From a bacterium (lineage in GTDB: Bacteria; UBA8248), in NCBI GenBank assembly GCA_965203325.1, contig OZ241875.1, forward strand, positions 3,712,001-3,776,000: a stretch of DNA of 64,000 nt, read 5' to 3'. Below the pieces are notes generated by a model. The model did not search any database and was not told where the DNA came from. It saw nothing but the letters and a program-made list of their open reading frames with translations. Position numbers and translations under genes: made by a program. Of this stretch, positions 14,100-41,668 are shown in pieces (the first letter of the stretch is position 1; each line of letters opens with the position of its first letter).

Positions 14100-14104
14100 C
14101 GAAA

Positions 14105-16892: not shown

Positions 16893-17558
16893 ATGTCTGT
16901 GGACGAAGGAACCAGTTTGCCGGATAGTTTGGGCGTGACCGAAGAGATGATGGCGTGTCCTTTGCCAAGGCTACCCTTTGTTGATCCTGAAAACATTCCT
17001 GAAGAACTCAAGGAGGAACTTGCTCCGCTCTATGATTGGTCGAAACGGATGTGGGGCACAGTCCCACGCTTTTTGCAGCTTTTGGGAAATTCGCCCCCCA
17101 CCGTGGAGGGATGGATGTTGCTCGACCAAAAACTGCGCACGAATCGATTGAAGACGGAGTCCGATTATATCCGCCTCATGGAGCTTGTCATCGTCAAAAC
17201 GGCCATATTGACAGAGTGCAACAACTGAATCGGGCACAACGTGGAGCTCGGTCGAGCTCTGGGTCTTACCCAGGATCAAATCAATCTGTTGGAAGGCGAT
17301 GACTGGCAAGACAGCCATTTGTTCGACGATAAGGAAAAAGCCGTCATCCGATGGGCGGATGAAGTATCGAAATTCAGGGCGAAGAATAACGACTTCGCAT
17401 TCAATGAGATGAAGAAATATTTTTCCAATCGGCAAATCGTAGAACTCACTTTTATTTGTGGTATGTGGCATCTTTCCGGGAGATTGGCCGAGGCGCTTCA
17501 CCTTGTGGTGGAACCGCCGGGAGGACGCATCGAATTTCAAGCGCAAGACATGGCCTAG
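16893..17558 (+). CDS. AhpD/carboxymuconolactone decarboxylase-family selenoprotein (CxxU; TGA 17226-17228 read as Sec), 221 aa
   Basis: Two track ORFs share one frame; joined sequence reads ELVIVKTAILTEC-N-N-U-IGHNVELGRALGLTQDQI...FDDKEKAVIRWADE...FSNRQIVEL, typical of CMD/AhpD; GAGGAG SD; SECIS-like hairpin follows. Confidence 0.85.
17229..17260 (+). promoter_or_regulatory. Putative bacterial SECIS element
   Basis: Stem GAGCTC(17244-17249)/GAGCTC(17254-17259), loop GGTC starting after 21 nt from the TGA. Confidence 0.75.
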
Positions 17559-18156
17559 ACACAGGCCTGTTGCCTAAAACATTTGTCGGGCGAGCCTTCG
17601 GTCGTTTCGTGTAGGCTCGGTGTACGCGCTTGAAACTCATCTTTCCGGCTTCCGTTCTTCGCCCTCCTCGAAAAGTTGACAGTTCACACGCACACCCGGC
17701 AACAATGCAAGAATTTGCTTTGAATAACATATTTTACTGGTTGAAAAATAAGGGCTTAGATATAGAAAAGGTTGCTTTTTTTAACGATTTCTGTATACTT
17801 GCCCGCTTTGTGATGTCGCCTGTGGCAAAGCCCGGGCTAATTTGCATAAAGCCGCCCGTAGGATGAGGATGAAATGATCGAGTTAAGAGATAGCGATGTC
17901 GTTTTGGATCACGAGTTTTTTGCAGAATCTGGAGATGTGCTGCCAAGCGATGTGGACTATGGTGTGTCTGACAAAGGTGTAGCTGATGATTTCTATATTT
18001 TGAGTGACGGCGAAGGGGGGAATGCTCCTGCTGTAGAATAGTGTTCCTTTTAAGAAAGGATTCAACGCCCGGTTGAAGTATCGGCCGGGCGTTTCTTTTG
18101 TCCTGAAATTTTTGCAGGATATGTGTTTTCCTTCATGAATCGGGAAAGAAAATGTG

Positions 18157-19002
18157 ATGGCTACGGACGAACACACGATTCACCATGAAGACATGCGAGG
18201 CCGGATTCTCTCAGCGGATTCGATGACGTATTTTGACGAAAGGGTTGGGGAAAGGGACGTTCTCATTGGAGGTTCTTACGCCGCACGAATGACGATTGCC
18301 TGGGCAATGCGGCTGGGTGCGAGAGCAATCATTGCCCATGCAGCGGGAGTCGGGAAGGATGATGCGGGGATCAGCGGCTTGTCTTTGGCTCAGGAATATC
18401 ATGTGCCTGCGCTGGCGTGTGAGACCATGTCCGCGAGGCTCGCCGCGGGAGAATCCGTGTATGAAGGCAAAGTCGGCCATGCGAATCAGGCAGCCCGAAG
18501 TCTTGGTGTTGAAATCGGTCAGTCGATTGCTGAAGCTTCGAATCATTTGCTCGATGCCGAGATGGGCCGGAAAGTAATTGTCGAGGAAAGTCTTGATGAT
18601 AGAATTTATGAACTAGAGCAATTTCCGAATGGTAACATACGCGCTTCATGGGGTATTCCCGTCCTGCGTTCCATCAAAGAACCAAGGCCAGATGATGTCT
18701 TTATCCAGGCTTCTCATTGCGGACTTACTCTCGTCCCTCATGTTATGGAGCTTAATCTGAAGGGTGTAATTGCGAATGATGCGGGCCGGGGGAAAGATGA
18801 TTCTGGTATCGCGTCTTTCCCCTATCTGTCGCGAGAGGGGATAGCCGTGGCGGCGGTCGGCGCAATGAGCGCGCGCATTGGCGATGTGATGAGCACATGG
18901 GAGGACGGCATCATTTCATGTATGAATGAAGTAGCCGAAAAGCGTGGGGTGCGAGAAGGCATGCGGACGCGAGAGGCGGCTCACGCCATGCTCAATGCGT
19001 GA
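18157..19002 (+). CDS. Hypothetical protein built from two homologous halves
   Basis: IIAHAAGVGKDDAGI...TMSARL...ANQAARSLGVEIGQSIAEA versus VIANDAGRGKDDSGI...AMSARI...MNEVAEKRGVREGMRTREA. Confidence 0.8.
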   Translation: MATDEHTIHHEDMRGRILSADSMTYFDERVGERDVLIGGSYAARMTIAWAMRLGARAIIAHAAGVGKDDAGISGLSLAQEYHVPALACETMSARLAAGESVYEGKVGHANQAARSLGVEIGQSIAEASNHLLDAEMGRKVIVEESLDDRIYELEQFPNGNIRASWGIPVLRSIKEPRPDDVFIQASHCGLTLVPHVMELNLKGVIANDAGRGKDDSGIASFPYLSREGIAVAAVGAMSARIGDVMSTWEDGIISCMNEVAEKRGVREGMRTREAAHAMLNA

Positions 19003-19011
19003 GGGTTTCAA

Positions 19012-19087
19012 TGGTGGAGGTGAGGGGATTCGAACCCCTGACCTCGTGGGTGCGATCCACGCGCTCTCCCATCTGAGCTACACCCCC
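19012..19087 (-). tRNA. tRNA-Ala(CGC)
   Basis: 76-nt cloverleaf GGGGGTGTAGCTCAG...TTCGAATCCCCTCACCTCCACCA; anticodon loop ATCGCAC; G3:U70 pair; encoded CCA. Confidence 0.97.
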
Positions 19088-19101
19088 ACAAAAGGAACTT
19101 G

Positions 19102-19130
19102 AAGGTAGGCGAAGGAGCTTCGGGTGTCAA
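19102..19130 (-). promoter_or_regulatory. Sigma70-type promoter of tRNA-Ala
   Basis: TTGACA-17 nt-TACCTT on the minus strand just upstream of the tRNA. Confidence 0.65.
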
Positions 19131-19140
19131 GTAAAATAGG

Positions 19141-19384
19141 GAGAGCCGATGAAGAACTCCCCCTAGGAGACTTCACCGGCTCTCGACCTGCCGCAGAGTC
19201 CGCCCGTTTCCCCCGCAGCAGGGAATTGCTTTTGACTTGAAACAGGAGCCGAGGACTCAACCCCTGAGGTGCATTATCCTCTACTCCCAATCCTGATTTT
19301 GGTGAGAGCCGGGGGATAACCCTCCGAGGATTTTCCCCCGGCTCTCGTCCCGTCGCAGAGTCCGCCCGTTTCCCCCACGACGGG
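19141..19384 (-). ncRNA. Unidentified tandem structured-RNA-like module (two copies of a two-hairpin unit plus one related hairpin)
   Basis: Units at 19304-19384 and 19141-19222; identical 12-nt loop GAAACGGGCGGA; stem differences are compensatory or G-U on the minus strand. Confidence 0.55.
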
Positions 19385-19393
19385 TAAATAATT

Positions 19394-22300
19394 TCAAGAA
19401 CACCCACTCGTTGCGCCACAAGTCATACACTTCAGACACGTGCCGTTTCGCACCAAGGTGAATGAACCACAATCGCCACATGCCTCACCCTCATACCCTT
19501 TGGCGCGGGCTTCTTCGATACGCGAATCGAGGGCGGAGCCTGCTTCTGCTATAGGCGTCAACGAAGCGATGGTGGATTCTTTCTCATAATTCAAACTTAT
19601 CCGGTCACTGCGCGGTGCACTCGCATCCGGTCCCGGGAATACCGTTTGAATCTCCTCTTCTTCTTCGGTGTCGAATTCCGGTATCTCTTCCTGAGGGCGT
19701 CCAATCGTGTCGCTCCTCAAATCCTCCGACACGACTTGTGCAAGATCGTGGCGACCGAGATATGAAACTGCCAACTCACGGAAGATGTAATCGATGATGG
19801 AGGTGCTCATCTTGATGTGCGGGTTTCCTGAAACCGCTCCCCCGGGCTCGAAACGTGTGAAGACGAAGGCATCCACGAATTCATCCAGAGGGACGCCGTG
19901 CTGGAGACCCAGCGAAATTGCGATGGCGAAACAGTTCATGAGGCTTCTGAAGGCAGCGCCTTCTTTGTGCATATCTATGAAAATTTCGCCGATAGAGCCA
20001 TCCTCGTATTCTCCGGTTCTAAGATATACCTTGTGTCCACCGATGACGGCTTTTTGTGTGTATCCACCACGGCGGGTAGGCAACTTGCGTCTTCTGGATT
20101 GGTAAATGATCCGGCGCACAATTTGCTGAGCTACGTGCACGGGAGCGCTTTGAGTAGCTGGTTCTTCCTCATTGATGTCAGCGAAGAGTTCTGCTTCGCT
20201 TTGCGCGGAAAGGGGTTGGCTTAGTTTCGAGCCATCGCGGTAAATCGCTATGGCTTTGGTCATCCGCTGCCACGATTCATGGTAGATGTCCAAAATATCT
20301 TGAATCGTTGATTCCGCGGGCATGTTGATGGTTTTGCTGATGGCGCCTGATATGAAAGGCTGCGCCGCCGCCATCATCCGGACGTGCGCCATGGGGCTGA
20401 TGAAGCGTTTGCCTTCGCGCCCGCATTTGCTCGCGCAATCAAATACAGCCAAGTGCTCTTCTTTTAGGTGGGGTGCGCCCTCAAGCGTCATTTTCCCGCA
20501 AACGAAATCATTCGCTTCGCTGATTTGCTCTGGAGTGAAACCAATGGCTTCGAGCAGATTCATATCCCAGTCGCTTATCTGCGATTCACTGAGTCCTAAT
20601 TGCTCACGACAGAAGTCTTCACCGAGGGAGTATTTGTTGAAGGCAAACTGGATTTCAAACGCCCCTTCGAGCGCGGCTTCCACTTTTTCCAGAGCCTTGC
20701 TCGTAAACCCTTTCTCATGCAAAGACTCCGGATTGATATGAGGCGCATTCGTGAGGGTGCCCCGCCCTCGGCAATAGGCGACGATTTCGCGGACCTCTTC
20801 ATCGTCATAGCCCAGATGCCGCAAGGCAACGGGAACGGATTGGTTGATGATCTTGAAATAACCGCCTCCGGCCAGTTTTTTGAATTTCACCAAGGCAAAA
20901 TCCGGTTCGATTCCCGTTGTGTCACAATCCATCACCAGACCAATGGTGCCTGTCGGCGCGATAACTGTGGCTTGTGCGTTCCGGTAGCCGTTTCGATAGC
21001 CGATGGCCAAAGCATCGTCCCACGCTTCACGCGCCGCTTGGAGAAGATAATCGGGACAGATACCCGCAGCAATTCCGTTTGGCGCTTTAGAGAGCATTTC
21101 GTATTCTGCTTCCGGTACGGAATAAGCTGCGCGGCGGTGGTTTCTCAGAACTCGTAGCATATGTTCTTGGTTATCTTGATATCTGACGAAGGCGCCCAGT
21201 TCTCCGGCCATCTCGGCGCTGGTGGCGTACGAGCAGCCTGTCATGATCGAGGTGAGAGCGCCGCACCACGCTTCCGCTTCCGGAGAATCGTAAGGGATGC
21301 CGAGAACCATTAACGCAGTGCCGAGATTGGCATACCCAAGCCCCAGGGTACGATACTCGAATGAGCGTTTGGCTATTTCCGGGCTGGGGAATTGCGCCAT
21401 GAGCACGGAAATTTCGAGGACAACCGTCAATAGACGAATGACATGACGATAGTCTTCTATCTGGAAATGATTCTTTTCAGTATCTAGGAATTTCATGAGA
21501 TTCATGGATGCCAGATTGCATGCGGTGTCATCCAGGAACATATATTCCGAGCAGGGATTAGAACCATTGATACGCCCATCAGTGGCGCACGTGTGCCAGT
21601 CGTTGATAGTCGTATCGAATTGAAGGCCTGGGTCTGCGCAACACCACGCCGCATACCCAATCTGATCCCAAAGTTCTTTTGAACTAACGGAGTCGGCGAT
21701 TTCACCATCGGTCCGCCGAATCAAGTTCCACTTCGTATTTTTCTCGATGGCTTTCATGAATTTATCTGAAACACGTACCGAATTGTTCGAGTTTTGTCCG
21801 GACGCCGAGGCGTAGGCCTCGCCTTCCCAATTCGTGTCGAATTCCTCGAACTCGATCTCGGTGATGCCTTGCTGCGCGAGTTGAAGAGTTCGATGAATGT
21901 AATTGTCCGGAACACCGGCGAGCCTTGCGGCGCGTATCGCTTTGGCGAGCGATGGGTTCTTGTCCGGCTGATGGAGGTTGCCATTCAAGGTCAGGTTCTT
22001 CTCTTTCCGGCAAGCTCCGAGAATGGCGTTCATGTGCCGGTTGCACATCTTGCTGCCCGATACGAGCGCAGCCACTTTCTGTTCTTCGTGCACCTTCCAG
22101 TTGATGAATTCCTCGATGTCGGGATGATCGATATCGAGCGTGACCATTTTCGCCGCGCGGCGTGTCGTGCCGCCCGACTTGATGGCGCCCGCAGCGCGGT
22201 CCCCAATCTTGAGGAAACTCATCAGGCCGGAGCTTTTTCCGCCTCCCGAGAGAGATTCTCCTTCTGCTCTCAAGCTAGTGAAATTCGTGCCGGTGCCCGA

Positions 22301-22984
22301 GCCGTATTTGAAGATGCGCGCCTCTCGCGTCCATAAATCCATGATCCCACCCTCGTTGACGAGATCATCTTTCACCGATTGGATGAAGCACGCGTGCGGC
22401 TGGGGACGTTCATAGGCGTTGGTGGAGCGGAGTATTTCCCCGGTTTCGGGGTCGCAATAGAAATGGCCCTGTGCGGGGCGCGTAATGCCGTAGGCCCAGT
22501 GGAGGCCCGTATTGAACCACTGCGGCGAGTTGGGAGCCGCCATCTGGCTCGCGAGTATGTATACAAGCTCCTCATAGAACGCCTTGGCGTCCTCTTCGGT
22601 GTGAAAATAACCGTGTTTCCAGCCCCAATACGTCCAGCATCCCGCCAGGCGGTGGAAAACGTCCCGTGCGTCTTGTTCGCTCCCGTATTGCTCATCCTCG
22701 GGCAGGGATTCGAGTTTTTCCGTGTCCGGCTCCGAGCGCTGCAGCCACTCGGGCACGCCGTCTTCGGGAATCTTTTTCGAGTGGGCGGGGACGCCGGCTT
22801 TTCGGAAGTATTTTTGCGCCAGGATGTCGACGGCCACCTGAGACCAGTTCTCCGGCGCCATGATGTCCTTCGCTTCGAAGACGACCGAACCGTCCGGGTT
22901 GGTGATGCGTGAGGTGCGCGGCGCGAAACCGACCTCGCTATACGCGTCATCTCCGTCCCGTGTAAAACGCCTCGTAAACTCCAC
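19394..22984 (-). CDS. nrdJ: Vitamin B12-dependent (class II) ribonucleotide reductase with C-terminal TSCPD-like region
   Basis: [29 protein letters not shown]-terminal CGDC...[14 protein letters not shown] start after AAGGAG. Confidence 0.96.
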
Positions 22985-23051
22985 TTCCCGTCTCCTTCGC
23001 AGGGCGCCCCGCTATGCCGGGGCATATTTAGTATGACGAAATCAAGCCGTA

Positions 23052-23166
23052 ACACTAAATGTAGTATGTTTTGCTATCGTCTGTCAATACCCTAAAAACG
23101 GATATGCACAAAATATATGAACTTACCCACACGTTATCCCCAAATGTTGTGTTTTCCTGTGGATAA
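23052..23166 (-). promoter_or_regulatory. nrdJ promoter with two NrdR-box-like sites and DnaA boxes
   Basis: ACACTAAATGTAGTAT (23052-23067) and TCCCCAAATGTTGTGT (23137-23152); TTGACA (23087-23082)-18 nt-TACATT; perfect DnaA box TGTGGATAA at 23158-23166 plus two one-mismatch boxes at 23123 and 23134. Confidence 0.7.
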
Positions 23167-23755
23167 GCGGCGCAAGAAGGGCAATTGGGGGCAGAGTACC
23201 GCGCCGTCAGCCCGCACCGCCTCGTTTTGAGGGGCCGCGACGCGCCCCGGGAAGGTGCGCCGGAGCGCCTGAATCTGGAGGGAAGAGCCGCCATCCGCCA
23301 GGCTGATACCGCGAAAAACGCCCTGCAACTCCCCGCATTTGCGCGCATTTCCCCTCGTTAATTTATCGAAAAACACCGTGAATTTATCTGAATTTATCGA
23401 ATTTTTCAGTATTGTTCAGGAATGGTAAGGCTCGGTTTCGCCGCCCGGCGTTCGCCGCAATGACCCCCTCTCCCTGAAACCCGGATAGCGCTGTGAGAGA
23501 TTCTGCAACGGCCGTCCTCCAAGCGGCGACCCGTGGCTTCAAGAGCGAAGACCGCGCGTCGAGCAGGGGGATGGTACACCCTTTCGGAACGCGCTTCTGC
23601 GGGGAAATGCGTGGTCGAACCCGTCTGAGGATGGGGGTCAAGCGCGAGTGAGGAGGGAGCGTTTGCCGACCAATGTGGGGGTCAGCTTTTCCGGTACGGG
23701 GGTAGGAGAGACTGAGGCAGGAGGGGCTGGGCGACGGATTAACACACAGGGTCGC

Positions 23756-24121
23756 TCAGTCCTGCTCCAAGAGTACAGCCAGCTTTTCGAGCGTCTCGCC
23801 CACCACGCGCGGCGGAGCCTGCGACGCGAGGCGCGCGCCTCTGGCGCGCCAATCGAGGCTCTTCACCTGATCGGCGAGAACCACGCCCGTAACGGGGCCT
23901 TCGGCGGGCAGCGTCACCTCGAAGGGATAGCCCTTGACTCTCGAGGTGATGGGGCAGAGCAGCGCCAGACTGCTTTTCTCGTTATAGCTTCGGGGGCTGA
24001 CGACCAGCGCGGGGCGGCGACCCGCCTGCTCGTGCCCGGCCTGGGGGGTGAAAGAAAGCCAGACGACGTCGCCTCTGCCCGGAACGTAGTCCGCGCCTGA
24101 AACCTCCCGTCTCGCTATCAC
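23756..24121 (-). CDS. mazF: MazF/PemK-family endoribonuclease toxin
   Basis: YVPGRGDVVWLSFTPQAGHEQAGRRPALVVS...KGYPFEV...DQVKSLDW; GTG overlaps the antitoxin stop. Confidence 0.93.
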   Translation of the reverse strand: MIARREVSGADYVPGRGDVVWLSFTPQAGHEQAGRRPALVVSPRSYNEKSSLALLCPITSRVKGYPFEVTLPAEGPVTGVVLADQVKSLDWRARGARLASQAPPRVVGETLEKLAVLLEQD

Positions 24122-24354
24122 GCCTCGGCGCCCTGCGCCGGACCGGCGTCTTGCTCGGCGTGTAGGTTGCCCGCGTTTATTTCGGCGAGCATGTCGGCCA
24201 GTCGGTAACCTCTCTTTCTCATCACCACCCGGTCGCCGCGCGCGTTCATCTCGATGGCCGAACCCTCGCGCACGCCCCATTGCTCGGCGATGGGCTTGGG
24301 GATGCGGACGGCCAGGCTGTCCCCCCATTTGGCGATGTGCGATTTTGCACCCAT
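24118..24354 (-). CDS. mazE: MazE/AbrB-family antitoxin
   Basis: KWGDSLAVRIPK AbrB motif; AGGAGG SD; coupled to mazF. Confidence 0.92.
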   Translation of the reverse strand: MGAKSHIAKWGDSLAVRIPKPIAEQWGVREGSAIEMNARGDRVVMRKRGYRLADMLAEINAGNLHAEQDAGPAQGAEA

Positions 24355-24531
24355 GCGGTTATCCTCCTATTGAGAAATCATATCTATAATATATATCTAA
24401 ATGAAAGCGTTGTCGAGAAAAACTGAGATATTGAATGAGATTAGGGATGATATGGCCTTGACGAATCGTTTATGGAAACGCCATACATCCACGTCGGGAA
24501 TAATCCATGTCGCCGGAAATGGAGAATGTAA

Positions 24532-24705: not shown

Positions 24706-24778
24706 TGGGATCCGAGCCACTCGTGGTGATAAGTTAGGGTGTCTTTATGGAGGCGCATCGAACAAGAGGACTTATACA

Positions 24779-25638: not shown

Positions 25639-27045
25639 ATGGCGGCGTATGACGTGGCGGTTATCGGCGGGGGGCCTGCGGGCTACGTGGCGGGCGTGCG
25701 CGTCGCCCAGAGCGGGGGAAGCTGCGTGGTCATCGAGCGCGACGAGCTGGGCGGCACCTGCCTGAACTGGGGCTGCATCCCCAGCAAGAGCCTCATCGCC
25801 GCCGCGGAAGTGTATCGGAACATCAAGAACGCGGACGCCTACGGCATCGAGGTCACGGGCGAAGTGCGCGCCGACTTGGCCGCCATGGTCGAGCGCAAGG
25901 ACAAGATAGTCGCAGGCCTGGTAAGGGGAATCGGCGGGCTGTTCAAGGCCCACGGGGTGGCCCACATGGCGGGCGAAGCCGAGATTCTGGAGATGGGCAA
26001 AATCTCGGTGCGCGGAGAAGACGGCGAGCACGAGGTGGTCGAGGCCGGTAAGATCATCATCGCCACGGGTTCCCGGCCCGCGCAGATTCCCGCCTTTCCC
26101 ATCGACGGCGAAAAAATCATCTCATCCGAACAGGCCGTGCACCTGAAAAATCTGCCCGAGAGGGTGCTCATCGTGGGCGCGGGCGTCATCGGCTGTGAGT
26201 TCGCGTGTCTGTATAGAGAGCTCGGGGCGGAGGTGACGATGGTGGAACTGCTCGACCGCGTCCTGCCCTTAGGAGACGAGGATGTCTCGAAACTCATGGC
26301 GCGCGAACTCAGGAAGCAGAAGATCAAGGTGCGCCTGAATGAAAAGATAACGGGCGTCTCGCGCAAGGGCAGGGCAATGGTCGCCGGCTTCGAGGGTTCG
26401 GATGATGAGGAGCGCGCGGACCTGGTCCTCGTCTCCGTGGGCCGGACGATGAACACCGACGGCCTGGGTCTCGATCGAATCGGCGTCGAACTCGGCCCGC
26501 GCGGCGAAATCAAGGTGAACGATTTGATGGAGACGAACGTCTCTGGCGTCTACGCGGCGGGCGACGTGGTGGGCGAGCCCATGCTCGCGCACGTGGCCTC
26601 CGCCGAGGGGGTCGCCGCTGCGGAAAACGCCATGGGCGCGGAGATACGGATGGATTACCGCGCGATTCCGGCGGGCATCTTCACGCATCCTGAAATCGGC
26701 GTCGTCGGCATGGCCGAACACGAGGCGGAGAAGGCGGGGCACGCGGTGCGCGTGGGCAAGTTCTCGGTTCGCACGCTCGGCAAGGCGCAGGCCGAACGCG
26801 CGCTGGAGGGAGAGGTTAAGGTCATCGCCGATGCGGGGGATGACGCCATCCTGGGCGTTCACATCGTAGGCGCCCACGCCGCCGACATCGTGCACGAGGC
26901 CGCCGTCGCCATGCAGCACCGCGTCACCGCTTCGGAAATGGCAAGCACCATTCACTCCCACCCCACGCTTTCGGAAGCCGTCATGGAGGCGGCATTGGAC
27001 GTCCACGGCGAGGCCATCCACGCCCCACCCAAGAAACGTTCATAA
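25639..27045 (+). CDS. lpdA: Dihydrolipoyl dehydrogenase
   Basis: GGGPAGY, GGTCLNWGCIPSK, GAGVIG and HPTLSE motifs. Confidence 0.97.
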   Translation: MAAYDVAVIGGGPAGYVAGVRVAQSGGSCVVIERDELGGTCLNWGCIPSKSLIAAAEVYRNIKNADAYGIEVTGEVRADLAAMVERKDKIVAGLVRGIGGLFKAHGVAHMAGEAEILEMGKISVRGEDGEHEVVEAGKIIIATGSRPAQIPAFPIDGEKIISSEQAVHLKNLPERVLIVGAGVIGCEFACLYRELGAEVTMVELLDRVLPLGDEDVSKLMARELRKQKIKVRLNEKITGVSRKGRAMVAGFEGSDDEERADLVLVSVGRTMNTDGLGLDRIGVELGPRGEIKVNDLMETNVSGVYAAGDVVGEPMLAHVASAEGVAAAENAMGAEIRMDYRAIPAGIFTHPEIGVVGMAEHEAEKAGHAVRVGKFSVRTLGKAQAERALEGEVKVIADAGDDAILGVHIVGAHAADIVHEAAVAMQHRVTASEMASTIHSHPTLSEAVMEAALDVHGEAIHAPPKKRS

Positions 27046-30032: not shown

Positions 30033-31870
30033 CTGAACGCCATCAATGGAAGAAAGCTGTTTTGAAGCGCATCTATACAACACAAAATTGTTTGTGGAGC
30101 ACTTTTGGGCCGAAAGTGCGAGGAAACGCCGGTTTCTTCGAACTCGTTATAAGAAACATACCGTCGCCGCCCGGATAGAGAGCATAACGACGAACAGGAA
30201 ACCGATTTGCCGCTCACTTTTGGGCGAAAGTGATTGACAAGATGGCGCAAGTTTCATCTTCGAGAGAGAAACGCTATGTTCAGAGGTTCATTCAAAGGGT
30301 TGTGGAGCGGTTTTTTTGATTGGAGCCGTTGTTTCGTATACTTGAAGAAATTTAGAGAGGACTGATGGCCCCGGTTCATTATCACGAAGGGCGATTCCCT
30401 CCCGAGGCGCGTCTTGATTGGCCGACGCTGGTGCCGTTGATTGGCCCTGCGGTCGCGGCCCTCGCGCGCTACGACGGGGTGCTTGCCGCCATTCCCAACC
30501 CTGATGTCTTGCTTGCGCCCTTGACTACCCAGGAGGCGGTGCTCTCCTCGCGCATCGAGGGCACCCAGGCCACCATGAGCGAAGTGCTGGAGTTCGAGGC
30601 GGGGCAGGAGGTGGACTCATCCGAGCGACGTGGCGACATTGAAGAAATACGCAACTACCGCTCCGCTATGGGGGATGCGGAGAAGATGTTGGAAACATTG
30701 CCGCTTTCCGTAAGGGTCGTCTGCGAGGCGCATCGCGTATTGCTTTCGGGGGTGCGCGGGAGAAACAAATCCCCCGGTGAGTATCGGCGTATTCCCAACT
30801 GGATCGGGCCGCCGGGATGTTCCATCGACACCGCCACGTTCGTGCCCATCGGGGCGGAGAAACTCGACGGGGCCATGAGCGCTTGGGAGCGCTATATCCA
30901 TCAGGAGACGCCCGATCTGCTGGTGCAGGCGGCTGTCCTGCACGCCGAGTTTGAAGCCCTGCACCCGTTTCTGGACGGCAATGGCCGTCTGGGGCGGATG
31001 CTGGTGCCTCTTTTCCTTTGGCAGCGCGGTCTCATCAGCCGGCCCATGTTCTATGTCAGCGCTTATTTCGAGGCGCATCGCGATGCGTATTACGATGGGC
31101 TGCTCGCCGTCTCGCGCGACGAAGATTGGACGGGCTGGTGCACATTCTTTCTCGAAGGAGTCAGGGTGCAGGCGGAGGATAATCTGTCGAAAGCCAGGGC
31201 CATTCTCGATCTCTACGAGGATATGAAAATGCGCGTAGCGGAATTGACTCGCTCCCACTACGCCGTCCACGCCCTGGACTGGATGTTCGAGCGTCCGATT
31301 TTCAGCACCGCCTCCTTTGTGGCTTGGGCGGGGATTCCGAAACATACAGCGCGCCGCGTTCTGGGAGTACTTCGCCGGAGTGGAATCCTGAGTGTTGTTA
31401 GAGTCGGGGGAGGCCGCCGATCAACCATTCTTTCTTTTCCGGCTCTTTTGAACATTGCGGAAGGGAAAAAGCTGTTTTGAGGCGCATCTATGCAACACAA
31501 AGTTGTTTGTGGATCACTTTTGGGCTAAAAATGATCATCAAAATCGTTTGTTGCGCACTCATTAACAACAAGCGTATTGATACTACCCGAATATAGAGTG
31601 TCACGACACGAAGGGAAGAAAGCTGTTTTGAGACGCATCTATGCAACACAAACTTGTTTGTGGATCACTTTTGGGCCAAAAGTGTGAGGAAACGCCGGTT
31701 TCTTCGAACTCGTTATAAGAAACATACCGCCGCCGCCCGAATATAGAGCATAACGACGGCACAGAAACCGCTTTGTCGCTCACGTATGAACGACAAACTA
31801 TCTTGCCGCTCACTTTTGGGCGAAAGTGATTGACAAAACCCTTTGCCGTGCATTTATTAACAACAAACGC
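30033..31870. repeat. Direct repeats flanking the Fic gene, carrying five copies of palindrome CACTTTTGGGC(N)AAAGTG
   Basis: Long copies at ~30048-30240 and ~31615-31836, diverged copy at ~31464-31607; palindromes at 30100, 30215, 31515, 31666 and 31811. Confidence 0.85.
30365..31480 (+). CDS. Fic family protein (N-terminal SSxIEG region, Fic domain, probable C-terminal HTH)
   Basis: HPFLDGNGRLGR catalytic motif; EAVLSSRIEGT inhibitory-helix motif. Confidence 0.95.
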   Translation: MAPVHYHEGRFPPEARLDWPTLVPLIGPAVAALARYDGVLAAIPNPDVLLAPLTTQEAVLSSRIEGTQATMSEVLEFEAGQEVDSSERRGDIEEIRNYRSAMGDAEKMLETLPLSVRVVCEAHRVLLSGVRGRNKSPGEYRRIPNWIGPPGCSIDTATFVPIGAEKLDGAMSAWERYIHQETPDLLVQAAVLHAEFEALHPFLDGNGRLGRMLVPLFLWQRGLISRPMFYVSAYFEAHRDAYYDGLLAVSRDEDWTGWCTFFLEGVRVQAEDNLSKARAILDLYEDMKMRVAELTRSHYAVHALDWMFERPIFSTASFVAWAGIPKHTARRVLGVLRRSGILSVVRVGGGRRSTILSFPALLNIAEGKKLF

Positions 31871-31898
31871 ATCTTCGCCCCACTATGATGATGAATCG

Positions 31899-32576: not shown

Positions 32577-32586
32577 GGTGTTCTGA

Positions 32587-33448: not shown

Positions 33449-34267
33449 CTACTCGCCGGATTGTTGTTTATGTTTTTCGATGGCCGCCATCGCATGCTCG
33501 CGGTCTTCGGGGTCTTCCACGCGGTGCGCGGTGTCGAGAGCAGCCTCGATTTGCCCGGCTTCGGCCTGCGCCACGGCGATGTCCCGATAGGCCCAGGAGC
33601 GGTAAAGCGCCTTGCTGATGCCGCTTGCGGAGTTGAGGGCGGCGGGGAAATCTCTCGCCTGTCCCTGGGCTGTGGCGATTTCCTGCAAGGCCCAGGAACG
33701 CCAGGCAGGGTCGCCGATTTCACGGGCGTTCTGAACGGCGGCGGTGAAATCTCCCGCCTTGGCGATGTCCATGACGCTTAGCCACGCTTTTTCGGAAAGG
33801 CTTTTTTCGTCGCGGATCTCCTCGATCGTCTCCAGAGCGGCGTTCAACGTATGGGTGGAAGTCGTAGCGCCGAAGCCACTCTTGATGGCGGAGAAGTGCT
33901 TGAGCGCCTCCATTCGATCGTCGGGGTCGTCGATGCAGCGTATCGTTTCGATGGCTTCGCTGATTTGTCCCGCCCTTGCCTGCGCGATGGCGATTTCCTG
34001 CAAGGCGGAGGCGTAAAAAAGAGCGCTGCCGATGCCTCGCGCGGTCTCGATGGCGGCGTCGATATCCCCCGCCTTCGCCTGTGATCCGGCGAGTTGACTC
34101 AGATGAATGGAGCGGTTGACGATCTCGCTGAGGAATCGGGCGTTTTCGGCCTCGGGCGTCTCCTCCCGGATTTCCGCGCTTTCGGGCAGGAAAGAGGCTG
34201 GCGCCTTTTCCTCCGCTTCGCGCGAACCCCCCAGAAATCGCATGAAACTCCGGAGTATGTTTCTCAT
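33449..34267 (-). CDS. TPR-like helical repeat protein
   Basis: Several ~37-aa repeats of ALxxIAxAQAxAGxxxxAxxxAxxI. Confidence 0.75.
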   Translation of the reverse strand: MRNILRSFMRFLGGSREAEEKAPASFLPESAEIREETPEAENARFLSEIVNRSIHLSQLAGSQAKAGDIDAAIETARGIGSALFYASALQEIAIAQARAGQISEAIETIRCIDDPDDRMEALKHFSAIKSGFGATTSTHTLNAALETIEEIRDEKSLSEKAWLSVMDIAKAGDFTAAVQNAREIGDPAWRSWALQEIATAQGQARDFPAALNSASGISKALYRSWAYRDIAVAQAEAGQIEAALDTAHRVEDPEDREHAMAAIEKHKQQSGE

Positions 34268-34509
34268 CCTGTTCCTGTCTTGTCCTGCACGGAAGAATTC
34301 GCCTTGGTTCAGGGCAATCGTCCACACAGGTTGGATATGATTGCGCCACCGCATGTAGTTATTATCTTCACTTTCAATTCATTTTGCAAAAAAAAAGTCG
34401 AATAGGCCGGAATTATGGTCTCCCGCCAAGAAATTGGCGCGCAAACGCATAATGAAACGAAAAACAGTCCCGATGCCGCGTTCGAGAGAGCGCGAAGCTC
34501 CCGCGGCTC

Positions 34510-36546
34510 TTACTCCTCGATCGCCTCGGCAACGAGCTCGGCGATGTCGGCGGCGCGGATGTTCTTATCCGGGTCGAGCGCCTTGAGCGCGTCGTCGAAC
34601 ATCTGCATGCAGAAAGGACAAGACACGGCGGCGGTTTGGGCGCCGCAGGCCTTCACGTCTTCGAGACGCTCGTGGTTGATGCGCTTTTGGGGCTCATCGT
34701 CCATCCAGGCGTAGCCGCCTCCCGCGCCGCAGCACAGCGAGCGCGAGCGGTTGCGCGCGAGTTCGGTGAAGCCGCCGTCTGATATCTGGTGCAGCACTTC
34801 GCGCGGGGCGTCGTATACGCCGTTGTGGCGGCCCAGGTAGCAGGGGTCGTGATAGGTGAGGGAGCCGAGCGATTTCTTGAGCTTGAGCTTGCCTGATTTG
34901 ATGAGTTCCGCGATGAGCTGCGTGTGGTGCACCACCTCGTAGTTTCCCCCGAAATCGGGGTATTCGTTCTTGTACGTGTTGAAGCAATGGGGGCAGGTGG
35001 TGATGATTTTCTTGACCTCGTAGCCGTTCAGCGTCTCGATGTTCTGCTTCGCGCACATCTGGAAGGTGAACTCGCCTCCGACCCGCCGGGCCGGGTCGCC
35101 CGTGCAGACCTCCTCCGCCCCCAGGATGGCGAAGTCCACGCCCGCTGCACCCAGAATCTTCACCATCGCCCTGGATACCTCGATGTTGCGGTCGATCATC
35201 GAACCCGTACACCCCACCCAGTAGAGGTATTCCGCCTTCTCGCCGCTTGCGAGGACTTTCACGTCGAGCCCCTCGTACCATTCCTCGCGGTTGTGCTGCG
35301 CGCCCACCCAGGGGTGGAGCCGCTCGTCCATGGATTTTAAGAACTGGCGCGCGTCCTCGCTCGTCTTCGATTCCATCATCACCAGATAGCGGCGCATGTC
35401 CACCATCTTGGGGATGTGCTCGATGAAGACGGGGCACTCCTGTTGGCAGGCCCCGCAGGTGCGGCAGCCCCAGAGTTCTTCCTCGAGAACGGCGGGTTCG
35501 TCCGCAGGCTCGCCGAACAGGGGCGGCCTCTCGCCCGCCTCACTGTTTTCCGCAAGCGCCGCCGGGCCCGCTTCGCTCAGGTGCGCCTTCATGTCCTGAA
35601 TCAGCTTCTTGGGGTTGAGCGGCACGCCGCTCATGTAGGCGGGGCAGACGTCCTGGCAGCGGCCGCAGTTCGTGCACGCGTCCAGATCGAGCAGGTTCTT
35701 CCAGGTGTATCCCTCGATCTTCTCTACCCCCAAAGTTTCGATGGCCTCGGGGTCGGCTTCCATCGTCGCCTCGATGTCGATGAAGCTCAGCTTGCCGCTG
35801 GGGGCCAGATTTCTGCAGAACATGTTCAACAGGCCGTACCAGATGTGGTTGAATTTGCCGAAACCCATGTAGCCGAGCAGGACGAATGCGGAAATGGCGT
35901 GGAACCACCAGTTGATGCGGTGGAGAAACCGGAGCGTCTCCACGCTCAGCCCCTGGAGGGTCAGGGCGACCGCGTAGCCGCCCGGCGACCAGGGGGCCAG
36001 GGACGGGTTGTCCCTGAGCTCGGTCGCCGCGATGCGCAGCCCCTCCACGACGAAGCCCTGCACGAAGACGAGCAGCAGCAGCCAGAGCGCAAGGTAGTCA
36101 TCGAGCACGGAGTTCATGCGCTCTGGTTTCACCACCAGGCGGCGCCACAGGGCCATCACGATGCCGACGATCCCAAGCAGCCCGAAGCCGTCGCTCAAAA
36201 GTGAGTAGCCCAGGTAGAGGTTTCCCTTGAGATAGTGGATTCCCGTCCATTCCTGAACGGCTATCATGGAGGTGGCGATGAGTTCGGCGAAAAAGCCGTA
36301 GAATATGAACAGGTGCATGAGGCCGGGGTAGGTGTCCCGCAGCATCCGGCGGTGGAGCACCAGTTCATCCACGACGCCCCACAGACGCTTTGCCGGATTA
36401 TCGGTTCTGAGCTCGCCGCCGCCCAACCTCCACAGGCGCACGCGCTGGTAGATGCCGTAGGACATCACGCCGATCGCCGCCGCGGCGAAAAGATATACCA
36501 GGGGGCCGAAGACGATGTTCCAGTAGATTTCCCGGGTGGGCGTCAT
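34510..36546 (-). CDS. Membrane-bound Fe-S oxidoreductase (FadF/HdrD-like)
   Basis: N-terminal TM region, [12 protein letters not shown] and [12 protein letters not shown] ferredoxin motifs, CCG domains ([16 protein letters not shown]). Confidence 0.92.
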
Positions 36547-36717
36547 ATGAGAATCCTGTGGGGCGATCCGTTGCGTTTTCGTTCATTACTGATTTTCCGA
36601 GGTTACGAAAACTCGGCCGAAAAGTCGACACACTCCCGAGTTCATTTGAATCGTGGTCTTCTTTACTTGATAATCATTCCTGGAACCTTCAGAAGCACAT
36701 CGAGAAGGAGGCGGCGG

Positions 36718-37131
36718 ATGAACGAGAGAAAAATACGGGTGCTGGTGGGCAAGCCCGGCCTCGACGGTCACGACAGGGGCGCCAAGGTGGTCGCGCGTGC
36801 GCTCAGAGACGCCGGCATGGAAGTGATTTACACCGGCATCCGCCAGACGCCCGAGCAGATCGCTTCGACCGCCATGCAGGAGGACGTCGACTGCGTGGGC
36901 CTCTCGATACTTTCAGGTGCGCACAACCATCTTTTTCCCAAAATTCGTGAATTGCTCGATGGGCACGGCATGGACGACGTCCTGCTCTTTGGCGGCGGCA
37001 TCGTGCCGGATGATGACATTCCCTTTCTCAAGGAGAAGGGGGTGGACGAGATTTTCACCCCCGGCGCGACGATGGAGGATATCGTCGCCTATGTGCGTGA
37101 AACGGTGGCCCGACGCAGGCAGAGCGCCTGA
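36718..37131 (+). CDS. Cobalamin-binding domain protein (methylmalonyl-CoA mutase small-subunit type)
   Basis: [22 protein letters not shown] and GGIVP motifs; AAGGAGG SD. Confidence 0.95.
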
Positions 37132-37232
37132 CGTCGCTGCTTCGTTGCGGCGCGAAGGCGCAGTTCGTATACTGCGCGCTCATTATCAGTACGAGGCGCA
37201 AGATTCGGGATGAAAATTATCGGAGCGGCGGG

Positions 37233-37700
37233 ATGAAGAACGTATGGCTGATGGCGCTGGCGATGGTCTGCTTGCTGCTCGTTTCCGCCTGTCAGCGCAA
37301 ACCCATCGAAAGGGCTGTGCGCGGCTCTCTTCCCAAGGCGGAGGAGAACGTGGTCGTCACGTCCTACTGCCAGAGTTGTCATCTGCACGCGAGTTTCCAG
37401 GCAGACCCCCACGTCGAGAAACAACAGCTTCGCTATGACGAAAAGAGCCCGCTGCGCGCCGCCACCCGGTGCCTCGCTTGCCACCTCGTTCGTCCCGAGA
37501 CGTTTTTCAAAGAAGAACTACGCAGCACCAAGTTCCCGCACGGCGCGTTGGTCGACATCGCCAAGATCCCCAAGCCGAAGGCTGCGCCCCGCCTGAAAAG
37601 AGAGAAAGGCGAGGGATCCGCGCCCAAACAGGAAGCTCCTCCCCCTGCCGTGAAAAAAGAAAAGAAGAAAAAGCGCTGGTATTTCCTCTATCTCTTCTGA
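37233..37700 (+). CDS. Diheme c-type cytochrome lipoprotein with Lys/aromatic tail
   Basis: Lipobox VSAC; CQSCH and CLACH heme motifs. Confidence 0.75.
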   Translation: MKNVWLMALAMVCLLLVSACQRKPIERAVRGSLPKAEENVVVTSYCQSCHLHASFQADPHVEKQQLRYDEKSPLRAATRCLACHLVRPETFFKEELRSTKFPHGALVDIAKIPKPKAAPRLKREKGEGSAPKQEAPPPAVKKEKKKKRWYFLYLF

Positions 37701-38497
37701 GTCGGGTCGAGTAAGTCTCTCAGCCCGTCGCCCAGGACGTTCAGGCCCATGACGGTAAGGGCGATGGCGATTCCCGGGTAAATCGTCAGGTGCGGAGCGA
37801 CGAGCAGAAAATCGCGGCCCTCGGCCAACATCGCCCCCCAGCTCGGCTCGGGCGGCTGTATGCCCAGCCCCAGGAACGACAGCCCCGATTCGGCGAGAAT
37901 CGCCCCCGCCATGCCGATGCTCGCCTCCACGATGACCGGCGAGATGATGTTCGCGAGCAGGTGGCGGGTGAGGATTCGCCCGGGCGTGGCGCCCGCGGCC
38001 AGGGCGGCGGTCACGAATTCGCGCTCGCGCAACGCCAGCACCTGCGCGCGGACGAGGCGCGCGTAGCCCACCCATCCGAACACCGAGAGCGATATCACGA
38101 TGTTCCACAGACTAGGCGCGAGCACGGACATGAGTGCGATGGCGAGCAGAATGCCGGGAAAGGCCAGGAACACGTCGGTGACGCGCATGATCGCCTCATC
38201 CCACACCCCGCCGAGATAACCCGCGATTCCTCCGATGATGACGCCCAGCAGCACGGATACCGACACGGCGGCGAAGCCCACGGTGAGCGAGGTTCTCCCG
38301 CCGTGTAAGACGCGGCTTAGGATGTCGCGGCCGAGCTTGTCGCGCCCGAAGGGATGCGCCGTCTCGGGAGCCGAAAGGCCTTGCGCCAGCTCCATCTCAT
38401 AAGGGTTTTGGGGCGAGAGGAGGGGAGCGGCCAGGGTGGCGGCCAGCAAGAGGGCGATGATGCCCCCGCCCAGATAGATGGACAGACCGCGCCTCAT
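37688..38497 (-). CDS. Peptide/nickel ABC permease (DppC-like)
   Basis: HPFGRDKLGRD, EAA loop, ESGLSFLGLG; ATGA coupling. Confidence 0.92.
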   Translation of the reverse strand: MRRGLSIYLGGGIIALLLAATLAAPLLSPQNPYEMELAQGLSAPETAHPFGRDKLGRDILSRVLHGGRTSLTVGFAAVSVSVLLGVIIGGIAGYLGGVWDEAIMRVTDVFLAFPGILLAIALMSVLAPSLWNIVISLSVFGWVGYARLVRAQVLALREREFVTAALAAGATPGRILTRHLLANIISPVIVEASIGMAGAILAESGLSFLGLGIQPPEPSWGAMLAEGRDFLLVAPHLTIYPGIAIALTVMGLNVLGDGLRDLLDPTQKR

Positions 38498-39414
38498 GTG
38501 AGCCTCACGCGCGGGTCGAGCCAGGCGTAGGCGATGTCGGCCAGAAAGTTCGCGCTCACGTAGACGGCGGCGATGAACAGCACGCAGCCCTGCACGAGGG
38601 GGTAGTCGCGAGACGCGATGGCCTGGATCACCAGGCGGCCCACGCCGGGCCAGGCGAAGACGGTCTCGGTGATGATGGCGCCCGAGAGCAGGGCGCCGAG
38701 CTGGAGGCTCAGGATGGTGATGAGCGGCAGGCACGCGTTCTTGAGCGCATGGAGCCAGAGCACCCTTTTTTCCGAAATGCCCTTCGCGCGCGCCGTGCTG
38801 ATGTAGTCTTGCGGCAGCACGTCCAGCAGGCTCGAGCGCGCCATGCGCATCAATATGGGGGAGAGCGCCGCGCCGAGCGTCACGGCGGGGAGGATGAGGC
38901 TGAATGTCCCCTCCCTGCCCGAGACCGGGAACCAGCCCAGGCCGATGGAGAAGACGATGATGAGCAGCGGCCCGAGCCAGAAGACGGGCATGCTCGCGCC
39001 CGCCACGGCGAGAAAGCCTGCACCCAGGTCGAGCGCCGTGCCCTGTCTTCGCGCCGCCGCAATTCCCAGCGGGAGCGAGATGAGCAGCGCAACGGCCATC
39101 GAGGCGAGCGTTAGCTCCGCCGAGGCATAGGTTCGCTCGAAGATGATGGCCGATACCGCTCTTTTCTGGTGGAGCGAATTCCCTAAGTCTCCGCGCAGCA
39201 GCCCGCCCATGTAATCGGCGTATTGCACGCCCAGCGGCCTGTCCAGCCCCAGCGTCTTTCGCAGTTGTTCGCGCTGGGCGGGGCGGGCGGTTTCGCCCAG
39301 CATCAGGTCCACCGGGTCGCCCGGTAGCACCTGGGTGACGATGAAGACGACCGTCGTCACCCCCCACAGGACGGGGATGAGGAGCAGAACGCGTCTTAAG
39401 AGGAATTTTCTCAT
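38494..39414 (-). CDS. Peptide/nickel ABC permease (DppB-like)
   Basis: PGDPV, TARAKG, ETVFAWPGVG and RDYPLVQG motifs. Confidence 0.93.
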   Translation of the reverse strand: MRKFLLRRVLLLIPVLWGVTTVVFIVTQVLPGDPVDLMLGETARPAQREQLRKTLGLDRPLGVQYADYMGGLLRGDLGNSLHQKRAVSAIIFERTYASAELTLASMAVALLISLPLGIAAARRQGTALDLGAGFLAVAGASMPVFWLGPLLIIVFSIGLGWFPVSGREGTFSLILPAVTLGAALSPILMRMARSSLLDVLPQDYISTARAKGISEKRVLWLHALKNACLPLITILSLQLGALLSGAIITETVFAWPGVGRLVIQAIASRDYPLVQGCVLFIAAVYVSANFLADIAYAWLDPRVRLT

Positions 39415-40991
39415 CTGTCGCCTCGCGCCGGGGAGAGAGTGGCCCTCGCGAGCGAGATGAAATCCGCATCCGGATATACCCGGTACCCCGATATGCGCTT
39501 GTCGAAGACGGCCACGTTCACGCTGTGCCAAAGATTGATGTAGGGAAGATCGCGGCCCAGGATGCGCTGTGTCTCGCCGTAGGCGCGGGCGCGAATCTGG
39601 GGGTCGGCGGACTGGTGGGCCTCTTCCAGGAGCGCGTCCACGCGCGTGTTTTTATAGCGGCCGCGGTTCAAGCCGGCCGGCGGGATGAAGCGGCTGTGAA
39701 AGATGTAGCGGTAGATGTCGGGGTCCGATATGCCGACCCACGTCAGGCTGTAGAGCTGGAAGTTCCCGTTTCTGATGTCGCCGAAAAACGTGCCCCACTC
39801 GTAGGAGCGGATTTTCATCTTGATTCCCACGCGGGCGAGTTGGTGGCCGAACACGGTGGCGATGCGGCGCCCCAGCTCGTTCTGCGAAGTTTTGTAGACG
39901 AGTGTGAAGCGCGGCTCGGGCCCCGGCCCGTCGGGGTCGGGAAAGCCCGCCGCATCGAGGAGTCTCATCGCCAACTCCGGGCGGTGCGCGTAGCGGGGAA
40001 GGCCTTTTTGATGCGCCCAGTGATCCGGCGGCAGCAGGCTGTCCGCCTCCTGTACCAGGCCCTTGTGGATGAAGCGCACGATGGGCCGTCTGTCGATGGC
40101 GTGGGCGATCGCGCGCCGCACCTCGAGTTTGGAGAGAATCGGGTCTTCCAGGTTGAAGCCGATGTAGGTGAAGTTCGTGCCCAGACGCTTTCGAATCTTG
40201 AGCCGCTTGTTCTTGATGAAGCGCGGCAAAATGTCGGGGGAAAAAGCGTTCTGGAGGAAGTCGACTCCCCCGCTTTCGAGTTCCAGGACGCGGATGGTTT
40301 CCTCCGGCAGAATCCGGAAGATGAGGTTCTCATAAGCGGGTTTGCCGGCGAAATGGCCGGGAAACGCCTTGAGTGCGATTCGTACGTCCGGCGCGAACTC
40401 CACGAACTGAAACGGGCCGGTGCCGACGGGTTTTTGGGCGAAACGGCTCCCCGCTTCGCGCGCGCTTTTGGGGAGAATGCCGACCATCAGCGATTCCGCG
40501 AACGAGGCGGAGGGTTCGGTGAGATGAAAGACGACACTGTGCGGCGTGGGCGTTTCGATGCGCGCGAGTTCCTTGAGTCCCGCCGCCTTGGGCGAGGCGA
40601 GAGAGGGGTCTCGAATGGAGTCGAAGGTGTATTTCACATCGGACGAGGTGAGGGCTTCGCCGTTATGGAACCGCACCCCGCGCCTGAGTTCGAAACGATG
40701 GACGAGGGGCGAGGGCCGCTCCCATTTCTCGGCGAGTTCCAGGACGATTCGGCCCTCGTGGTCATTCGATATCAGGCGGCTGAAGATGAAGCGCTGCACC
40801 TTGGAGGAGATGGCGTCCTGCGACAGCCTCGGGTCGAGTTGCGTGGGGTTGGTTCCGATGCCGACGACGATGGTGTCGCCTTTTGTTGCACCCTTCTCCC
40901 CGCAGGCGGATAAAGCGGCGCACGCCAGCATGAGGGCCATGAGAGCAAGCGGTTTGTTTCTCACCTGAGCATACCGGCGGGCGGGAGACAT
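39411..40991 (-). CDS. Peptide ABC substrate-binding lipoprotein (family 5)
   Basis: Lipobox LSAC; LRRGVRFHNG, PVGTGPF and VRRAIAHAIDR motifs; start uncertain. Confidence 0.92.
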   Translation of the reverse strand: MSPARRYAQVRNKPLALMALMLACAALSACGEKGATKGDTIVVGIGTNPTQLDPRLSQDAISSKVQRFIFSRLISNDHEGRIVLELAEKWERPSPLVHRFELRRGVRFHNGEALTSSDVKYTFDSIRDPSLASPKAAGLKELARIETPTPHSVVFHLTEPSASFAESLMVGILPKSAREAGSRFAQKPVGTGPFQFVEFAPDVRIALKAFPGHFAGKPAYENLIFRILPEETIRVLELESGGVDFLQNAFSPDILPRFIKNKRLKIRKRLGTNFTYIGFNLEDPILSKLEVRRAIAHAIDRRPIVRFIHKGLVQEADSLLPPDHWAHQKGLPRYAHRPELAMRLLDAAGFPDPDGPGPEPRFTLVYKTSQNELGRRIATVFGHQLARVGIKMKIRSYEWGTFFGDIRNGNFQLYSLTWVGISDPDIYRYIFHSRFIPPAGLNRGRYKNTRVDALLEEAHQSADPQIRARAYGETQRILGRDLPYINLWHSVNVAVFDKRISGYRVYPDADFISLARATLSPARGDR

Positions 40992-41119
40992 CTGGAGATT
41001 CGCACACGCCGCGCCCCATCGTCAACGCGGCGCGCCCTCGTGGTTTACAGCCCGCCCCGGGCGGATTAAGATTCGCCTCGGCGTGATTTTCCGGTTCAAC
41101 GGCTTGGAGGTTTTCCCCG

Positions 41120-41668
41120 ATGAGATGGAGCAGGAATCATTTGGCGCGAACCATGCGTCTGGCGGCGATGGCGCTCGCTTTCGTCCTCGTGAGCGCGGGC
41201 ATGGGGGCGGCGGCGCCTTTCGATGAGAACCGTCCCAAGGTGGGGGAGGAGGCGCGTAATTTCGAGATACAGGGCTTCAAGCTCTCCGGACTCAAGGGCA
41301 AGAAGAACTTGGTGATGGTCTTCTATCGGGGTCACTTCTGAGTGATCTGCCAACGGCAACTCGTCGAGTTCCAGAGATTTTCCGAAAAAATTCATCGGCT
41401 GCAGACCGAAATCGTCGCCATCAGCGCGGACAATGCGCTTGAAATGAACAAGACGACGCGGGAGTTGGGCATCCGGTATCTGTTGATTTCGGACCCCAAG
41501 AAGCGAATCATTCAACACTTCGGGGTGCTGCATCCGAGAGAGGGGATCGCCCGGCCCGCCACCATCATCATCGACAAGAGCGGCGTGGTTCGTTACGTTC
41601 ACGTGGGTAAATACCCCAGCGACCGCCCCTCGGTTCAGCAGGTGATGCAGGCCCTCGCTTTCTTGTGA
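41120..41668 (+). CDS. Exported peroxiredoxin-like (AhpC/TSA, thioredoxin fold) selenoprotein (UxxC; TGA 41339-41341 read as Sec), 182 aa
   Basis: Adjacent track ORFs share one frame: LVMVFYRGHF-U-VICQRQL...IVAISAD...LISDP...PATIIIDKSGVVRY; GGAGG SD; signal peptide; SECIS-like hairpin follows. Confidence 0.88.
41342..41375 (+). promoter_or_regulatory. Putative bacterial SECIS element
   Basis: Stem AACTC(41358-41362)/GAGTT(41366-41370), loop GTC starting after 21 nt from the TGA; lower TCTG/CAGA pairing. Confidence 0.7.

Follow-up and report, generated by a model that had tools for sequence, protein, structure and literature searches.

The closest described counterparts of the elements considered here are the selenocysteine insertion sequences (SECIS) of bacteria and, among them, those of the Escherichia coli genes fdhF, fdnG, and fdoG. 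In the review PMC8659212, the conserved positions of the element are given as U17, G23, and U24, of which U17 and G23 are contacted by SelB. The bacterial SECIS model described in PMC13188914, a review of 2026, has an apical loop of 3–9 nucleotides (nt), an upper stem of 4–16 base pairs (bp), 16–37 nt between UGA and loop, a minimum free energy (MFE) of −7.5 kcal/mol or lower, and a G within the first two nucleotides of the loop, followed by G or U. The same source counts among the known bacterial selenoprotein families the AhpD-like (TIGR01926) and CMD-like (PF02627) proteins, both with a CxxU motif (U being selenocysteine, Sec), and the Prx-like thiol:disulfide oxidoreductases (PF00578) with a UxxC motif. 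Here we analyze a 64-kb stretch of contig OZ241875.1 (assembly GCA_965203325.1), which as a whole is called the window and whose positions are counted from its first base. Two of its genes, gene 1 (16893–17558) and gene 2 (41120–41668), both on the plus strand, contain an in-frame TGA that is followed by a hairpin. Both TGAs are very probably Sec codons in members of known selenoprotein families, each followed by an ordinary E. coli–like SECIS hairpin and not by the mark of a lineage code.

In gene 1, the TGA (17226–17228) is followed after 18 nt by CTC-GGTC-GAG (17247–17256); in gene 2, the TGA (41339–41341) is followed, again after 18 nt, by CTC-GTC-GAG (41360–41368). The apical loop starts 21 nt past the TGA in both. 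When both strands of the window are searched for TGA-N18-CTCG{1,2}TCGAG, these two sites are the only matches, and the core of 9–10 nt on its own occurs four times (plus-strand positions 2872 and 55016 included). Each of the two fixed patterns matches once in the window, and none of 100 dinucleotide-preserving shuffles contains any match. A hairpin with a G(G)TC loop follows both in-frame TGAs and none of the 26 gene models, among 45, that end in TGA; the outcome is the same with a spacer of 21 nt and with one of 15–27 nt, for stems of at least 4 bp. The 21-nt spacing and the CTC-G(G)TC-GAG core that a sequence-only reading had pointed out in the two genes are thus confirmed by pattern search and shuffles, and in this small sample the pattern is commoner after Cys-aligned TGAs than after ordinary stops. 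The observation is not a matter of chance.

With its TGA translated as Sec, gene 1 encodes an AhpD/CMD-like selenoprotein of 221 amino acids (aa) with the motif C109-N-N-U112. The start at 16893 is inferred, having been chosen for the GAGGAG just upstream. The protein shares with the AhpD-like and CMD-like selenoproteins the CMD domain, the CxxU motif, and the existence of Cys homologs with a Cys at the place of U. It differs from them in that its score for the Pfam CMD model (PF02627) only reaches the threshold (23.0 bits for a cutoff of 23, E = 8.3e-5, a borderline match) and in that no NCBIfam selenoprotein model is matched at cutoff, the matches to "YciW-related (seleno)protein" and TIGR01926 falling below it. 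Among 22 homologs obtained by protein search, 17 have a Cys in the U112 column, 3 end one residue earlier, 1 has a Trp, and 1 is out of frame. The same column holds a Cys in all eight Cys-form loci described below. Many of the Cys homologs have a Ser in place of the first Cys, in contrast to the CxxU of gene 1.

A contig search with an alignment of five gene 1 sequences gave 55 related loci, which were retrieved with flanks of 10 kb (979,441 bp in total). They come mostly from metagenome-assembled genomes (MAGs) labeled Nitrospinota or just "bacterium"; the other labels are Tectomicrobia, Rhodospirillaceae, Anaerolineales, and Alphaproteobacteria. The codon of U112 is TGA in 47 of the 55 loci and TGC or TGT in 8, so that, with gene 1 itself, TGA is found in 48 of 48 Sec-form sequences. 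The 47 loci comprise orthologs (71–99% identity) and a second, paralogous group of Sec forms (about 62% identical). This paralog, which reads CNN-U-LGHN and has the same hairpin core, is found in loci L027–L039, L041–L043, L045–L047, and L056 (at about 10001–10648 in most), and at least ten genomes (MAGs) have it on one chromosome or contig together with the ortholog. The ortholog of locus L040 (10001–10664) has a second in-frame TGA and a match length that is not a multiple of three, which points to a frameshift near its 3′ end, arising from a pseudogene or from an assembly error.

The hairpin of gene 1 (17242–17261) has in the window a stem of 8 bp, of which the conserved core comprises 6 bp (17244–17249 with 17254–17259), and a GGUC tetraloop (17250–17253) at nt 25–28 from the U of UGA. 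Over 60 nt, the fold has an energy of −20.3 kcal/mol (z = −2.4); the values range from −14.6 to −20.3 kcal/mol across folding windows, and that of the minimal hairpin is −10.7 kcal/mol. The sequence TGA-N18-CTC-GGTC-G(A/G)G is present in all 47 TGA loci as well as in gene 1. The hairpin is found in none of the eight Cys-form loci, which read CTG-GCCC-GAG or CTC-GGAC-GCA instead. The 39 distinct 45-mers of the family keep each of the six core pairs in 38 or 39 cases; one core pair is variable (23–30, with U-A in 16 sequences and U-G in 23), and no double compensatory change of the core was found among them.

The codons of the hairpin are nearly invariant. In the 48 sequences of the gene 1 family, GAG, CTC, and GGT are present in 48 of 48, the Arg codon is CGA in 19 and CGG in 29, and GCT is found in 45 of 46. 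The mean codon entropy of the hairpin is 0.22 bits, as compared with 1.10 bits over 90 further columns that are conserved and degenerate. Among 96 five-column stretches, no more than two reach so low a value, namely the hairpin and the codons around the UGA. Yet some of these codons are rare: in the window, GGT accounts for 13% of the codons for Gly and GCT for 10% of those for Ala, and CGC, with 39% of the Arg codons of window genes, is never used at the hairpin Arg of the family. The hairpin codons are thus frozen by selection at the RNA level, and this in association with the Sec forms: rare codons are fixed, the only synonymous changes are those that preserve pairing, and the Cys forms have no hairpin.

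Gene 2 encodes a Prx-like (AhpC/TSA family) thiol:disulfide oxidoreductase selenoprotein of 182 aa with the motif U74-V-I-C77. Its N-terminus resembles a signal peptide, and the start is either 41120 or 41153. The Pfam matches are strong for AhpC-TSA (PF00578, 86.7 bits for a cutoff of 26) and Redoxin (72 bits), and the NCBIfam SelL-related and PrxU models are below cutoff. An AhpC/TSA domain in which UxxC replaces CxxC is also the arrangement of the known Prx-like thiol:disulfide oxidoreductase selenoproteins (PF00578). The sequence-only reading was right in attributing different folds to the two genes, since Pfam places one with the CMD/AhpD-like proteins and the other with the AhpC/TSA proteins of thioredoxin fold.

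The Sec codon of gene 2 (41339–41341, U74) was assigned by alignment with CxxC homologs. An exhaustive protein search gave 3489 proteins with E ≤ 0.001, and 135 of the best 150 (those of at most 320 aa) were aligned. The U74 and C77 columns read CxxC in 109 of the 135; they are missing in 9 fragments, one of which (P0039) stops right before U, and the remaining 17 have SxxC (6), WxxC (4), SxxS (2), TxxC (2), -xxC (1), NxxC (1), or AxxD (1). In an alignment with solved peroxiredoxins, U74 corresponds to the Thr of TxxC and C77 to its Cys, which we take to be the peroxidatic Cys of canonical peroxiredoxins. A word-indexed search retrieved seven proteins, all of them short pieces of 107–111 aa. 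Six of them (85–97% identical to gene 2) begin at the GTG behind the TGA or one codon after it. In public protein sets, relatives of gene 2 occur only as pieces cut at the TGA, P0025–P0030 being C-terminal pieces of 107–108 aa and P0039 an N-terminal piece of 73 aa. The gene 2 selenoprotein is therefore systematically misannotated in these sets. No homolog of gene 2 was found by tblastn in the 55 loci fetched for gene 1. The true stop of gene 2 is also a TGA (41666–41668), 327 nt past the Sec-TGA and without a hairpin downstream; therefore, one codon would be read in two ways in a single mRNA.

In the hairpin of gene 2 (41355–41372), a bulged C (41357) separates two G-C pairs from a stem of 5 bp, which is capped by a GUC triloop (41363–41365) at nt 25–27 from the U of UGA. 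The span that the sequence-only reading gave for the two genes ends at 41375, just beyond this hairpin. At −4.1 kcal/mol, the minimal hairpin is as stable as its counterparts in E. coli (fdhF, −4.2; fdnG, −4.5). The G-U that is critical in such elements falls at nt 26–27 in gene 1 and at nt 25–26 in gene 2, which means that the register common to the two elements is given by the start of the loop and not by the G-U.

In loop, stem, and spacing, both hairpins lie within the ranges of the general bacterial model. Gene 1 has a loop of 4 nt on 6–8 bp, and gene 2 has a loop of 3 nt on 5 bp with 2 bp more past the bulge; GGUC and GUC agree with the loop sequence of the model, and the 21 nt between TGA and loop agree with its spacing. 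The energy of gene 1 is below −7.5 kcal/mol over its whole range. If the elements work as in E. coli, the stem-loop after each UGA would be bound, within the coding sequence, by the C-terminal domain of SelB, and SelB would bring Sec-tRNA(Sec) to a ribosome with UGA in its A site, thereby outcompeting release factor 2. Common to both genes would then be the general SelB determinant, made up of a G(G)UC loop that exposes its G-U some 25 nt from the UGA and of a short stem closed by G-C. The same determinant is seen in E. coli fdhF (GGUC) and fdnG/fdoG (GUC), and in the two genes it is moved 2–3 nt downstream. By analogy with E. coli, we infer SelB binding and Sec insertion at both TGAs.

Some observations weigh against two ordinary SECIS hairpins. 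The fold of gene 2 is weak, its MFE being borderline for the general model (−7.1 kcal/mol for a fold of 45 nt and −8.7 for one of 60 nt) and not below that of shuffled sequences (z = +0.6 to +0.9). In E. coli, a bulged U precedes the loop G by 6 nt; gene 1 has no bulge, and gene 2 has a bulged C at this position. Rfam gives no SECIS match at the gathering score in the window, nor at E ≤ 10 in two regions of 141 nt. Genes for SelB, SelA, SelD, and tRNA-Sec were not found in the window, whose only tRNA is a tRNA-Ala. Finally, two unrelated genes would be expected to agree in spacing, in the type of loop, and in three closing pairs roughly once in 1000, a figure that is an estimate and not a computed value. 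Given this improbability for independent elements, there may be some local preference for the shared features. Most likely, the identity of the three closing pairs (CUC/GAG) reflects coincidence together with inheritance within each gene family.

The alternative that fares best is the one advanced in the sequence-only reading, by which the motif is the lineage-specific recognition element of SelB. In its full form, the SelB of the lineage recognizes an extended element, with a loop exactly 21 nt after the UGA, the closing pairs C-G, U-A, and C-G, and a G(G)UC loop, and this element is common to most selenoprotein genes and can be mined for new families. One part of the proposal is retained here, as the hairpins are best read as SECIS elements that SelB would bind; the specificity to the lineage is not supported, since loops and architectures are as in E. 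coli, and the full form seems unlikely. Spacing, loop type, and the three closing pairs are indeed common to two unrelated genes, and the strict pattern is rare, without a chance match in the shuffles and with a single nonfamily match in both strands of the related loci, but two independent instances are too few to settle the question. Both elements lie 2–3 nt further from the UGA than those of E. coli, which could be a spacing typical of the lineage. Against the proposal, the G-U is one base out of register between gene 1 and gene 2. The middle closing pair is U-G in 29 of the 48 sequences of the gene 1 family, and these are missed by the literal pattern. Moreover, the gene 1 core is kept in loci labeled Nitrospinota and Tectomicrobia and in a Rhodospirillaceae MAG, and with such different phylum labels it must be inherited with the gene.

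A further selenoprotein gene speaks to the same point. In the MAG of locus L024, a gene of the UGSC family (7798–8334, TGA at 8095; NF041046, 132.2 bits for a cutoff of 125) lies about 2 kb upstream of the gene 1 ortholog, which is 72% identical to gene 1. Its SECIS has an unrelated stem of 10 bp and a GUG triloop at nt 23–25, 19 nt after the TGA, and the ortholog next to it has CTC-GGTC-GAG. Therefore, one genome contains two quite different SECIS elements. A covariance model of the SECIS of the gene 1 family (R1) likewise fails to unite the two genes of the window: it gives 70.2 bits to gene 1, and none of the 12 matches that it has at E ≤ 10 is gene 2; the best one after gene 1 (61894–61932, E = 0.43) is outside any gene. 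It is improbable that SelB in this Nitrospinota-labeled lineage, which is already known to be rich in selenoproteins, prefers an extended element, with G(G)UC placed 2–3 nt further out and closed by C-G, U-A(G), and C-G. If it did, a profile tuned to the lineage would do better there than the generic model of bacterial SECIS elements and could bring to light selenoprotein families that are not annotated.

The motif had also been put forward as a ready query for further selenoproteins, and for this use it turns out to be weak. The literal pattern has 19 matches in the related loci, 18 of them at sites of the gene 1 family. The other one (L040, position 20039) is intergenic, has a short open frame, and was taken as chance. 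Of the 48 Sec sites known in these loci (47 of the family and the one of UGSC), the strict pattern thus finds 18, and the version with G(A/G)G finds 47. Relaxed hairpins are barely above chance: with a spacer of 21 nt and a stem of at least 4 bp, there are 2 matches in the window for 0.67 expected from 100 shuffles, and with a spacer of 15–27 nt and a stem of at least 5 bp there are 6 for 3.9 expected. The covariance model, as said, misses gene 2. Five nonfamily matches of the relaxed pattern in the related loci were also considered, and none of them is inside a credible gene.

Screens based on Cys proximity, codon usage, and a hairpin filter, with inspection of 36560–37690, gave no credible further selenoprotein gene among the 316 in-frame TGAs of the window that have open frames on both sides. 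The codon-usage screen is of limited sensitivity, as at the stricter threshold it passed only 29 of the 48 sites of the gene 1 family and missed gene 2. In the 55 related loci, the same screens yielded a single further gene, that of the UGSC family in L024.

A second alternative is that the TGAs are real stops, the genes being split or pseudogenes and the hairpins chance or unrelated structures. The division of gene 2 relatives at the TGA by the gene callers of public sets and the unremarkable stability of the gene 2 hairpin are what this alternative would have, but it is very hard to reconcile with the rest of the data. The TGA of gene 1 is kept in 47 loci down to about 60% protein identity, with more than 100 open codons on both sides (except in L040, with 54 downstream), and the hairpin codons of this family are frozen against codon bias. 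In both families, U aligns with a redox Cys, and both are known selenoprotein families in the account of PMC13188914. The position of both TGAs at redox-Cys columns, the membership in known families, and the retention of TGA and hairpin in the gene 1 family also uphold the earlier claim that these are not two independent nonsense mutations. Both TGAs as Sec codons remain by far the better explanation. The weakest alternative, that a reassigned TGA is decoded in this organism as Trp or Gly, both standard amino acids, and that the hairpins play no role, can claim one gene 1 homolog with a W in the U column (P0020, presumably translated under another code), but it is next to impossible with 26 of 45 window gene models, gene 2 included, ending in TGA, with no other credible gene in the window having an in-frame TGA, and with both in-frame TGAs at redox-Cys positions.

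The value of these results is mainly one of annotation, as gene 1 and gene 2 are full-length selenoproteins that public gene calls cut at the TGA. The gene 1 family also provides a clean natural example of selection at the RNA level on a SECIS element. No new question is opened: hairpins of this type have long been known from E. coli, and for relatives in the lineage the selenoproteomes have already been cataloged with existing tools. A published tool for the search of bacterial SECIS elements is bSECISearch (PMC13188914, PMC13326102), and the database paper PMC13326102 gives, from homology and bSECISearch, 48–54 selenoprotein genes for MAGs of this group, among them the one from which locus L021 derives.

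Other genes of the window deserve a brief mention. On the minus strand, 19394–22984 encodes a ribonucleotide reductase of class II that is 1196 aa long, with the barrel domain in two separate stretches and a TSCPD domain; it may contain an inserted element. Also on the minus strand, an open reading frame (ORF) of 190 aa (23756–24328) has a PemK/MazF toxin domain in its C-terminal half, and a gene of the Fic/DOC family is found on the plus strand at 30365–31480. The small ORFs near these two genes have no Pfam match. A small lipoprotein-like ORF (37233–37700, plus strand) has two CxxCH motifs and a Lys-rich tail, and no Pfam match at E ≤ 1e-5. The GC content at third codon positions varies among window ORFs from 0.36 to 0.88 (e.g., about 0.45–0.50 at 12975–16861 vs. 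0.83 at 25639–27045), and the window looks compositionally mosaic.

The comparison with E. coli (sequences of fdhF, fdnG, and fdoG from NC_000913.3) shows in detail how close the two elements are to known ones. The SECIS of fdhF (formate dehydrogenase H, UGA at codon 140) lies within the coding sequence directly after the UGA and has the same GGUC tetraloop as gene 1, and in both the loop is on a codon boundary, GGU being a Gly codon. They differ in that the loop of fdhF is at nt 22–25, that of gene 1 lying 3 nt further downstream; in the stem, which in fdhF has an upper part of 4 bp and a bulged U17 and in gene 1 runs through 6–8 bp without a bulge; and in the pair that closes the loop, A-U in fdhF and C-G in gene 1. 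The elements of fdnG and fdoG (UGA at codon 196) consist of GG, a bulge of 1 nt, 5 bp, GUC, 5 bp, and CC, which is the architecture of gene 2. In all three, the bulge precedes the loop G by 6 nt, and the minimal energies are close. Here, the differences are a loop at nt 23–25 in fdnG/fdoG, which in gene 2 is 2 nt further downstream, a bulged base that is U in E. coli and C in gene 2, and the sequences of the stems. Neither gene has the loop G-U at nt 23–24, where it is found in E. coli. Still, the G(G)TC alternation between gene 1 and gene 2 is the GGUC/GUC alternation between fdhF and fdnG of E. coli.

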